32,874 nucleotides of DNA. Source: a virus. The stretch lies in the IMG/VR virus record IMGVR_UViG_3300000553_000177; one strand, 5' to 3'. The notes beneath the pieces were generated by a model that saw only the letters and a list, made by a program, of their open reading frames with translations, did not search any database and was not told the origin of the DNA. Of this stretch, positions 7,152-8,282 are shown in pieces (position 1 is the first letter of the stretch; the number at the start of each line of letters is the position of its first letter). The translations under genes were made by a program, and so were the position numbers.

Positions 7152-7211
7152 ATTGGTAATTATTTTTTATATGCGTCTTTAATAGATGCGTCTTTAATTT
7201 ATAGGTTATCG

Positions 7212-7303
7212 TTACAGATTATATTTTGATGCTATTATTTTAGCTTCTAAATTTTTTTCAAATAACTTGTATCGTTAGATTCGTATATTTTAATATATTT
7301 CAT
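7212..7303 (-). pseudogene. collapsed family A cassette: an 18-codon minigene MKYIKIYESNDTSYLKKI* followed by an orphan ...ASKYNL* end motif
   Basis: manual translation; the ATGA overlap with gene 7300..7626 is retained and the middle of the cassette is deleted. Confidence 0.45.
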
Positions 7304-7626
7304 AGGTTATATTTATTTGCTGATAGCATTGCTTCGAATTCATCAATTTCTTCTGGTGTTAGAGGTCTTAGTATATCTTTTTCATCTAACCAGCAGTTTA
7401 GTATTTCATATGTTTTTGAATTTATAAATTCTACGCCATAGTTATTTGTATGTTGTTTAATAGTTAGTATTTTAGCATAACTTTTATATATGGATTCTAC
7501 TATATTGGTAGTATGTATTTTTTCCCATTTCATATTTAGTGATGGTATAAAGAACAGGGATATTCTAACATAATCACCTGGTTTATAGTCTACATTGGAG
7601 TATTCGTATAGTTTTATATATTTCAT
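7300..7626 (-). CDS. family A small protein (108 aa), MKYIKLYEYS...ANKYNL
   Basis: ORF track; motifs. Confidence 0.65.
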   Translation of the reverse strand: MKYIKLYEYSNVDYKPGDYVRISLFFIPSLNMKWEKIHTTNIVESIYKSYAKILTIKQHTNNYGVEFINSKTYEILNCWLDEKDILRPLTPEEIDEFEAMLSANKYNL

Positions 7627-7659
7627 AGATTAATCGTTTTTTACGATTTCTGTAATTAC

Positions 7660-7962
7660 TTACAGATTATATTTTATTGTTGATTTCATAAATTCATATT
7701 TTTCTATTTCTTCTTGTGATGCTTTATCGCTTAGTTCGAAGTCTGACATATTTAGTATTCTCATTTTATTTGTTTTGCTATCTATACCTTCTACTCTATA
7801 AAGAGTACCTTTTGGTCTTATAGGAATTCCTCTATTATTATATGTTTTTTTACCTATTATTCTAACTATTGGGTAGAGTTCCATATATTGTAATGCTTCT
7901 GTTGAAATTTTAACATAGTCAATATTATTTACGAAGTATTCGAATAGTTTAAGGTGGTTCAT
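7660..7962 (-). CDS. family A small protein (100 aa), MNHLKLFEYF...TIKYNL; a hairpin overlaps its stop
   Basis: ORF track; hairpin TCTGTAA-TTAC-TTACAGA at 7649-7666. Confidence 0.6.
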   Translation of the reverse strand: MNHLKLFEYFVNNIDYVKISTEALQYMELYPIVRIIGKKTYNNRGIPIRPKGTLYRVEGIDSKTNKMRILNMSDFELSDKASQEEIEKYEFMKSTIKYNL

Positions 7963-7968
7963 TTGTGG

Positions 7969-8272
7969 CTACAGATTATATTTTATTGCATTTATTTTCA
8001 TTTCCATATGTTCTAATGCTTCTTCTAGGTTATTAGTTTTGAAGATGACATCGTTATATGTTGTTATTTTGTTAAAGTTATATTCTTTTGGTTTTGTATT
8101 TTCTATAATATTATAATCATCACCTGTTTCATATTTTTTTATCAGAGTAAATTGGTTTACTGTTTTATTAAAACGAATAATTTCCCATATTTGAAATTGA
8201 GAGTATAATTCACCTTCACATACGATGAATTTTTTAAAAGATTTTGTTTCAAAAGAGTTTAAGGTATTTCAT
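7969..8272 (-). pseudogene. family A member with a +1 frameshift near the N-terminus (MKYLKLF*); removing one T restores about 100 aa ending ...NAIKYNL
   Basis: manual translation: atg aaa tac ctt aaa ctc ttt tga, then the shifted frame is open to AIKYNL* at 7969. Confidence 0.5.
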
Positions 8273-8282
8273 TACAATTTCA

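Follow-up and report, generated by a model that had tools for sequence, protein, structure and literature searches.

Cassette turnover in a small-protein gene array of a viral genome fragment: decayed copies and candidate exchange at conserved gene ends

The window analysed here, the whole 32,874 nucleotides (nt) of the IMG/VR virus record IMGVR_UViG_3300000553_000177, carries about 30 small genes, nearly all on the minus strand, whose products begin with MK[YH][LI]Kx[FY]E and finish with (A)(K/N)KYNL. Some of them form array 2 (6533-8573, minus strand), a series of tandem, translationally coupled genes of about 100 codons, here called cassettes, in which broken copies lie among intact ones. 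How do such broken copies arise, and are the conserved gene ends the places where the DNA is broken and rejoined? The original prediction, made from this sequence alone, answered that the junctions between cassettes are recombination or deletion breakpoints and that the broken copies are footprints of homologous or site-directed recombination between repeated ends. Two things were merged there which are separated in the present analysis: the remnants correspond to ordinary pseudogene debris, while the comparison of the surrounding array between genomes shows cassette turnover. The array, a hyperplastic slot of the genome, probably evolves by birth-and-death, through junction exchange combined with ordinary decay, with the remnants being pseudogenes rather than products of end-to-end exchange.

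The array could be compared in three genomes. The 15.6-kb contig L006 (ERZ4198739), which is syntenic with the window from 8573 to 2770, carries 20 cassettes (g1 to g20). The window has five intact and two dead cassettes, and contig L036 (SRR22388164), reached via the g10 orthologue P0005, has three intact and one dead. The window retains g1, g5 (as a pseudogene), g7, g10, a collapsed remnant, g19 and g20, and the order in L036 is promoter-g10-g14-spacer-g19-g20. A promoter-like region upstream of the first cassette, g1 in the window, is common to the three genomes. Compared with L006, the window lacks g2-4, g6, g8-9 and g11-12 without any debris, which leaves four clean whole-cassette gaps; L036 lacks g1-9, g11-13 and g15-18, again without debris, in three clean whole-cassette gaps. 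In a further set of three contigs (L019, L022 and L011) core genes are 70-99% identical and the slots between them differ in their number of non-orthologous or strongly diverged cassettes.

The ends of some cassettes are chimeric. In L036, the array promoter and 26 nt which match window g1 at 25 of 26 positions (MKYLKTYET) stand at the start of g10, and the body of g10 follows from EYKPGDYV onwards. L036 g14 ends with AAATATAATCTG-TAA-CGAT, and both this end (...AAATATAATCTGTAACGAT) and the start of the following spacer are identical to the sequence after the window remnant, whereas L006 g14 ends with AATCTATGA and overlaps g15. Both the window and L006 contain a single copy of the 9-mer TAGCCACAA, after g5 and after g1 respectively, at non-orthologous junctions and each time exactly between KYN[LM] and ATG. 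Finally, a perfect copy of the 64-nt junction 22961-23024 spans a KKYNL end, the ATGA stop/start overlap and the initial 51 nt of the following gene. This duplication creates an orphan KKYNL end at 23498-23512 and provides an ankyrin cassette with the same first 16 codons, base for base, as its SH3-like neighbour. The clean gaps, the chimeric L036 ends, the displaced TAGCCACAA and the 64-nt duplication support the idea of exchange at the junctions, suggesting that the conserved gene ends act as preferred places of exchange. This part of the original prediction is therefore supported; its extension to the remnants is not.

Each junction consists of about 30 nt of near-identical, unstructured DNA, with the consensus GCAAAAAAATATAATTTATGAAATATATAAAA over 75 distinct overlap junctions. 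The stop/start overlap takes the form CTATGA at 92 of 151 full-length ends when all loci are considered, and exact in-register matches between different junctions of the window reach 31, 26 and 22 nt. Neither secondary structures nor inverted repeats were found in DNA folds of four ATGA junctions (z from -0.23 to +0.38). The synonymous codons used for KYNL and the stop are shared more within arrays than between arrays (p = 0.014). A scan of the array for sigma-70 promoters and terminators was uninformative (13 promoter-like matches against 18.8 in shuffled sequences). The TATAAT within AAATATAAT was considered as a -10 promoter box and set aside, as its synonymous variation indicates selection at the protein level. 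Small slippage duplications recur at junctions: an 11-nt tandem duplication at the g1/g5 junction (8273-8300, minus strand; TGTAATGAAAT twice), a 9-nt duplication at the start of L006 g19 (AAAAAACTT twice) and a duplicated end motif in L013/L019.

The collapsed cassette at 7212-7303 follows another pattern. Its N-part (ATG AAA TAT ATT AAA ATA TAC GAA ... TAG) encodes MKYIKIYESNDTSYLKKI followed by a stop, and its ATG overlaps the TGA stop of g10 as ATGA. The ...FEKNLEAKIIASKYNL end, with its stop at 7212, lies in a different frame, and the total length of 92 nt is not a multiple of three, so that the remnant is out of frame. It is thus a dead copy with the N motif, the overlap and an orphan C-end, as had been described. 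Over its first 47 nt the remnant agrees with the start of L006 g13 at 44 positions (MKYIKTYESNDTSYLKNYKKY...), and this homology ends at nt 47-50. The last approximately 45 nt, encoding FEKNLEAKIIASKYNL, do not match the end of g13 (DLILTANKYNL) and belong to the terminal-helix type ...KNKE(D/E)LE..I..A.KYNL seen in L006 g17/g18 (YFDKNKENCEAFIQALKYNL). Moreover, the spacer downstream is the L006 g18/g19 spacer, also located before g19 in L036. The joint lies at nt 45-50 of the remnant, within GAAAAA, with a microhomology of at most about 5 nt. The alignment to intact members places the breakpoints near the cassette ends, but outside the core motifs: 24 nt past the eight-codon N motif and about 30 nt before KYNL. 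Judging from these matches, the remnant is a single illegitimate multi-cassette deletion which begins at codon 16 of the g13 orthologue and ends some 15 codons short of the stop of a g18-type cassette, an extent of about 1.7 kb in L006 coordinates.

A product of recombination between like ends would have its joint inside the motif, in register, with one hybrid motif and without extra sequence, which is not what the remnant presents. The N and C motifs are not homologous to each other, and when like ends recombine, whole cassettes are lost or duplicated in frame with nothing left behind; the remnant is therefore not the footprint of such an exchange. The earlier view of the remnants as footprints of homologous recombination is not supported, since the breakpoints lie outside the motifs, out of frame, and join the N-piece of one cassette to the C-piece of another.

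The second dead cassette of array 2, g5, carries TTTT at 8251-8254 and reads MKYLKLF followed by a stop, where TTT would read MKYLKLFETKSF...AIKYNL. The single extra T proposed originally was thus recovered. The L006 orthologue P0002, intact and full length (57% identity), has TTT at this position (CTATTTGAA). The TTTT is identical in L001 and L008, two independent assemblies from different samples, which makes it a property of the population rather than a local assembly error. None of 101 other N-motif starts in the fetched loci shows a shift of this type. As a one-base run change relative to an intact orthologue, reproducible in independent data, g5 corresponds to a pseudogene by homopolymer slippage, and the change is unrelated to the junctions. 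Two other full-length cassettes of the window are frameshifted. In the one at 885-1323, the N-part (MKYLKLYESINY...) is the open reading frame (ORF) 1045-1323, and the two frames overlap in a T-rich stretch (1045-1097); its 3' part, 885-968, had been misread as a C-terminal-only remnant. In the other, the ankyrin cassette, which the original prediction did not report, the Ank_2 match of the joined protein (E 1e-9) spans the frame change.

Orphan C-ends occur elsewhere in the window. The two announced, at 15283-15305 and 27592-27615, are real and only a few nt off (15274-15300 and 27594-27647), and those at 23498-23512 and 29078-29092 are additional. The ORF length upstream of orphan ends was tried as a proxy for breakpoint position and rejected: out-of-frame stops are too frequent in DNA of 26% G+C. 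The orphan at 29078-29092 is located about 30 nt upstream of an IS607-like element remnant (29121-30723, plus strand) and on the opposite strand. Contig L015 has two collapsed cassettes of 49 nt and 32 nt, which are nearly exact junction cores.

These results are consistent with two processes. In the first, suggested by the three-genome comparisons, short-homology recombination or gene conversion between junctions would add, remove and re-join whole cassettes cleanly and would generate chimeric ends. The second is ordinary mutational decay of cassettes which may no longer be needed, and this decay is directly visible in the dead copies. One-base slippage in T runs produced the g5 pseudogene, and the shift of 885-1323 is likewise located in a T-rich overlap; a small out-of-frame lesion broke the ankyrin cassette, and one illegitimate deletion with 5 nt of microhomology or less the collapsed one. 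The remnants are pseudogenes on the way to disappearance. Their ends presumably survive longest because the upstream stop overlaps the 5' end and the next start comes directly after the A-rich 3' end.

Several points weigh against this combination of exchange and decay. There is no outgroup, and the clean differences could have arisen by insertion in L006 and not by deletion in the window. Stepwise erosion, rather than single exchanges, could likewise have led to clean gaps. The sharing of codons within arrays is modest and could reflect local duplication, and the chimeric L036 start uses a common variant of the motif, which could have arisen by convergence. Just one collapsed cassette can be mapped to intact orthologues, and its microhomology is deduced, as the parental sequences of the window's own lineage are not available. 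The 49-nt and 32-nt copies of L015 would also fit breakpoints clustered at the motif edges.

Table 1. Cassettes, spacers, broken copies and orphan ends in the window
Feature	Position	Strand	Relation or evidence
Second frameshifted full-length cassette	885-1323	minus	N-part ORF in another frame
g20, last cassette, intact, then hairpin module	6533-6856	minus	comparison with L006
g19, intact	6858-7151	minus	86% identical to L006 8112-8423
Spacer before g19	7152-7211	minus	conserved before g19 in L006 and L036
Collapsed cassette, C-part: last ~45 nt of g17/g18-type cassette	7212-7259	minus	terminal-helix type plus downstream spacer
Collapsed cassette, N-part: first 47 nt of g13 orthologue	7257-7303	minus	44/47 identical to L006 6166-6212
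g10, intact, predicted SH3-like barrel plus C-terminal helix	7300-7626	minus	orthologues P0004 (L006), P0005 (L036)
Double-hairpin spacer after g7	7627-7666	minus	-11.2 kcal/mol, z -4.17
g7, intact	7660-7962	minus	orthologue L006 4074-4349
Junction spacer TAG-CCACAA, pseudogene/g7	7963-7971	minus	9-mer also at L006 g1/g2 junction
g5, frameshifted full-length cassette	7969-8272	minus	intact orthologue P0002, L006 3452-3766
g1, first cassette, intact, MKYLKTYET...AVEKYNM	8283-8573	minus	orthologue L006 2169-2489
Orphan C-end TDAKKYNL-stop, directly after response-regulator gene 15311-15667	15274-15300	minus	end motif
Third frameshifted cassette, ankyrin repeats	23006-23501	minus	frames change near 23214-23235
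Perfect 64-nt copy of junction 22961-23024	23453-23516	minus	100% identity
Orphan C-end MIIDLKLKKEMEKYNL-stop (...KKEMEKYNL) in convergent intergenic region	27594-27647	minus	end motif
Orphan C-end ...DIEKYNL-stop, ~30 nt from 5'-truncated serine recombinase gene	29078-29092	minus	end motif

Selection and erosion alone, with no special recombination at the junctions, are an unlikely alternative. Deletions would occur anywhere, and those which survive would spare the upstream stop and the A-rich 20 nt or so before the next start, the A-rich AAAAAATATAAYYT stretch upstream of the ATG being needed for translation of the downstream gene; repeated small deletions would reduce dead cassettes step by step, first to junction cores and in the end to a clean junction. 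The dead copies do form a size series, from full-length frameshifted cassettes through the 92-nt remnant to the two L015 cores, and in L036 g19 a deletion of 101 nt, with 2 nt of microhomology, breaks the middle of the gene, away from the ends. The position of the orphan C-ends points the same way: 7 of about 11 non-redundant ones lie directly (ATGA) before a family gene, those of L021 and L010 are located between a promoter-like TATATA box and the first ATG, and in the window C-end-only orphans are more common than N-end-only ones. The absence of structure at ATGA junctions is also that expected for a translation start region. However, three orphans of the window (15274, 27594 and 29078) have no gene directly downstream, and erosion leaves unexplained the chimeric g1/g10 start, the L036 g14 body with its foreign end and spacer, the presence of TAGCCACAA at non-orthologous junctions and the perfect 64-nt duplication. 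We retain it as a partial cause, complementary to junction exchange.

A bolder proposal, rather improbable on present evidence, is that the conserved termini constitute a plug-in frame. Any ORF recombined between two junctions would at once become translationally coupled and receive a KYNL tag at its C-terminus and an address peptide at its N-terminus, for instance a signal for capsid targeting and cleavage with a hydrophobic-x-Glu ending. The arrays would be a phage system for exchanging effector modules of about 100 residues. The coding gene ends would then take the role which attC sites or PeSL elements (see below) have in other systems, and the ankyrin cassette could be a recent capture.

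It is very unlikely that the broken copies are functional, that is, that g5 is expressed by an RF2-type programmed +1 frameshift at CUC UUU UGA and that the mini-ORF of the collapsed cassette is a regulatory leader or coupling peptide. A slippery codon does lie directly before an in-frame stop (8249-8257), and a +1 slip of tRNA-Phe on UUU-U before UGA would yield the family start MKYLKLFE. The shifted g5 is stable across three assemblies and the 885-1323 copy would equally require a +1 shift in a T-rich stretch. The shift site is nevertheless not conserved among the 101 other starts, the L006 orthologue is in frame, no Shine-Dalgarno-like stimulator was seen upstream by eye, and T runs are ubiquitous at this G+C content. 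As for the mini-ORF, it stops 96 nt before the next start and cannot couple translation.

The chances are slimmer still for a dedicated site-specific system, either of integron type or dependent on a homing endonuclease, in which the KYNL/ATGA junction would be the recognition site and the remnants would be aborted or imprecise events. The common orientation of the cassettes, their lack of own promoters and the serine recombinase fragment within the window would agree with it, as would several orphans which keep just 6-8 C-end codons, since breakpoints may cluster just upstream of the motif. But the synonymous positions vary freely, as in a protein motif rather than a fixed DNA site, the ATGA junctions do not fold, and the remnant breakpoints lie 24-30 nt from the core motifs. 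No integrase was found in Pfam scans of the 35 ORFs located outside the cassette arrays of the 33-kb window, where the only recombinase-like match is the Resolvase fragment 29121-29441. This 106-amino-acid ORF matches just positions 34-138 of Resolvase (E 2e-7), the catalytic N-terminus being missing, and overlaps a 431-amino-acid ORF which has no Pfam match but in which TnpB/RuvC-like motifs can be seen by eye (GIDLN, FIEDL, NPAYSS), an association typical of IS607-type elements. The site-directed recombination of the original prediction is therefore not retained.

An artefact, in which assembler errors at repeated junctions made both the frameshift and the collapsed cassette, is practically negligible: the repeated junctions of about 30 nt could in principle mislead a de Bruijn graph assembler, but the region is base-for-base identical in L001 and, except for one unrelated single-nucleotide polymorphism, in L008 from a third sample, and the exact in-register repeats of 31 nt or less are below typical k-mers.

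Conservation in the proteins is highest in the first 8 and the last 4-6 residues. In the window 27 copies of the C-end pattern were counted against 0.28 expected, and 18 of the N-end pattern against 0.15 expected; both motifs are present in the intact array members and in the repaired g5 pseudogene. The last four codons vary synonymously while the residues remain constant (Leu CTA/TTA/CTG/TTG/CTT, Tyr TAT/TAC, Asn AAT/AAC, Lys AAA/AAG), indicating that the ends are under protein-level selection and do not represent a fixed DNA site. Among the fetched family proteins, 171 of 172 end with K[YF]N[LIMV] and 154 of 172 carry the N motif; alignments of at least 50 residues link 103 of 152 members from the fetched loci. 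A profile built from 29 members retrieved 2,832 cluster representatives (counted at 50% identity) at E <= 0.001 and 685 at E <= 1e-10. To judge from these alignments and profile matches, the set is a real protein family and not two motifs on random ORFs. No family was found for its members in Pfam or PHROGs, the source records mention only "hypothetical protein", and a literature search for "KYNL" gave no relevant match. A scan with the junction DNA pattern identified 21 stretches on IMG/VR viral contigs, the largest of 243 kb.

The main subfamily has the core GDYVI...NIGxIV...EI(I/L)x(F/W)SxNKE(D/E)LE. In the AlphaFold model of the 7300-7626 (g10) product, which is of modest confidence (mean per-residue confidence, pLDDT, 66.7), a small beta-barrel is followed by a C-terminal helix (residues 91-105), while residues 1-10 have a pLDDT below 50 and are not packed against the fold. 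At weak E-values (0.015), it comes closest in the PDB to PWWP, Tudor, chromo and KOW barrels, and the product is predicted to be an SH3-like barrel with a C-terminal helix. Other cores exist in the family, such as the ankyrin cassette and g19, which has no sequence relation to the SH3-like members. A BRCT assignment for g19 was rejected, the Pfam E-value of 0.019 not passing the threshold and a PDB sequence search giving no support; it is to be read as just a weak Pfam match. Fused ORFs were also observed: P0030 (243 residues) comprises two cassettes in one ORF, their junction being mutated to ...ASKLQVNIISKKLKHLKLYE..., and in L031 (485-1288) about 170 additional residues and an internal ...KIQLFEDFEDHY come before a g19-type domain. 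The family thus also includes read-through fusions. At 182-211 of the window two family genes converge and their KYNL ends and stops abut (AAATATAATCTATAA meeting TTACAGATTATACTT), forming a near-perfect palindrome.

The closest described mechanism is the modular shuffling mediated by PeSL elements in the hyperplastic regions of T4-type phages. These are intergenic elements of about 100 bp combining a sigma-70-like early promoter and a terminator stem-loop, and the repeated cassettes recombine to insert, delete or replace small ORFans and can release mini-circles, which carry one chimeric element (Arbiol et al. 2010, PMC2839356; Comeau et al. 2014, PMC4122927). In both cases plastic regions contain clusters of small, non-essential ORFs of unknown function, each flanked by a short repeat, insertions, deletions and replacements between related genomes are bounded by this repeat, and exchange at "acceptable" places gives viable recombinants. 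In contrast, the repeat described here is not an intergenic promoter and terminator but about 30 nt of coding DNA (C-terminus, overlapping stop and start, next N-terminus) that has neither fold nor promoter and lies inside polycistronic units, and what it flanks is for the most part a set of paralogues from a single family instead of unrelated ORFans.

The array also resembles tandem families which evolve by birth-and-death: paralogues are in tandem, copy number varies (20, 7 and 4), frameshifted and truncated copies lie beside intact ones, and the ends show some homogenisation. It differs in its unusually high density (about 30 members in 33 kb), in its very small units and in its conserved segments, which are confined to the extreme termini and also form the gene junctions. 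Integrons are characterised by attC sites, whose imperfect inverted repeats fold as single strands, and by a neighbouring IntI tyrosine recombinase accompanied by attI and a Pc promoter. They share with the array promoterless cassettes in the same orientation whose content differs between relatives, but the junction here is coding, synonymously variable and devoid of an attC-like folded site. The internal proteins of T4 have a shared N-terminal capsid-targeting sequence and come from a polymorphic locus, and they are not known to have a conserved C-terminus. They are otherwise unrelated small proteins with a short shared N-terminal peptide (MKxxxxFxxE-like) and a hydrophobic-x-Glu end. The unpacked N-terminus of the present family and its hydrophobic-x-Glu ending recall these capsid-targeting peptides, a likeness of peptide pattern; the present family has in addition its conserved C-terminus.

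Genomes of large phages are full of unannotated small genes, and the window illustrates one mode of their organisation and renewal: a very large, undescribed family whose members lie head to tail and whose shared gene ends double as homology for shuffling. The undescribed family and its junction-based turnover are of more value here than the debris. If confirmed, they would carry the PeSL idea beyond regulatory cassettes to coding termini and would make the junction motif a handle for finding such arrays in metagenomes.

The window has a G+C content of 26% and its short ORFs are densely packed. Neither the tRNA scan nor the Rfam scan of the window gave a match, and megablast of 20 kb of it against GenBank phages found none. 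Near-identical contigs were found in several freshwater metagenome assemblies. One of them, L001, a JGI contig from another sample, is 99.9% identical to the window across 21 kb; the sole differences are indels of 18, 3 and 2 nt (4415-4432, 4605-4607 and 3678-3679). The 18-nt and 3-nt indels are in frame within a 185-residue ORF (4195-4752), the length of which therefore differs between strains. A 428-residue protein (13074-14360, minus strand) has major-vault-protein shoulder and Vault_3 domains and is 47-51% identical to ORFs of the uncultured phage genomes LR756500 and LR756501 (462 kb and 735 kb). The shoulder domain is unusual in a phage. The source is probably an uncultured AT-rich phage, large or huge in view of this one vault-domain protein and of the contexts of related contigs. 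No family members were found within the stretches of about 40 kb fetched from LR756504, LR756500 and LR756501. A viral-contig scan with the g10 alignment found no relatives, tblastn of g10 against phages gave no match, and a metagenome scan with g19 yielded two distant contigs (L031 and L032), neither of them syntenic at the remnant.

Several non-coding elements accompany the array. The last Leu codon and the stop of g7 form part of the first stem of the double hairpin that follows this gene (CUGUAA GUAA UUACAG). In a copy after g20 (6500-6541; z -2.8) this stem is kept by a compensatory change (CUGUGA...UCACAG). The module may be a terminator or an element of RNA stability. A shortened form, CTGTAA followed by CGAT, is present in the remnant and in L036 g14. 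The spacer 7152-7211 contains two TTAAAGACGCAT repeats (7173-7181 and 7188-7196) and AAAAAATAATTAC. More generally, direct repeats TTAAAGACG(C/A), followed about 15-25 nt further on by AAAAAATAATTAC, precede g19 in all three genomes; the TTAAAGACG sites are at 7173-7196 (minus strand) in the window, at 7351-7400 and 8028-8111 in L006 and at 2162-2203 in L036. The repeats before g19 could serve as an internal promoter or operator; upstream of the first array gene there is a related GAAGACGAC...AAAAAATAATT. Another motif, AAWTTTTTATATATAA, is found 5-20 nt before the first ATG of several minus-strand gene runs (15673-15686, 24733-24746, 25789-25802 and 31159-31172), and also at 8582-8596. With at most one mismatch it has 19 matches against 8 expected, and it is likely, from this positioning, to be a phage promoter yielding very short leaders.

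The arrays are interspersed with signalling-type genes, namely a CYTH domain (8860-9270), a response-regulator receiver (15311-15667) and a cREC_REC domain (18653-19087), here in a phage context, together with a papain-like peptidase (28160-28924). A 90-residue ORF at 27719-27991 (minus strand) shows, when read from an internal ATG, a start resembling a signal peptide (MKKISIIIAFMFMITSPLF), after which comes a long low-complexity tail rich in Ser and His.

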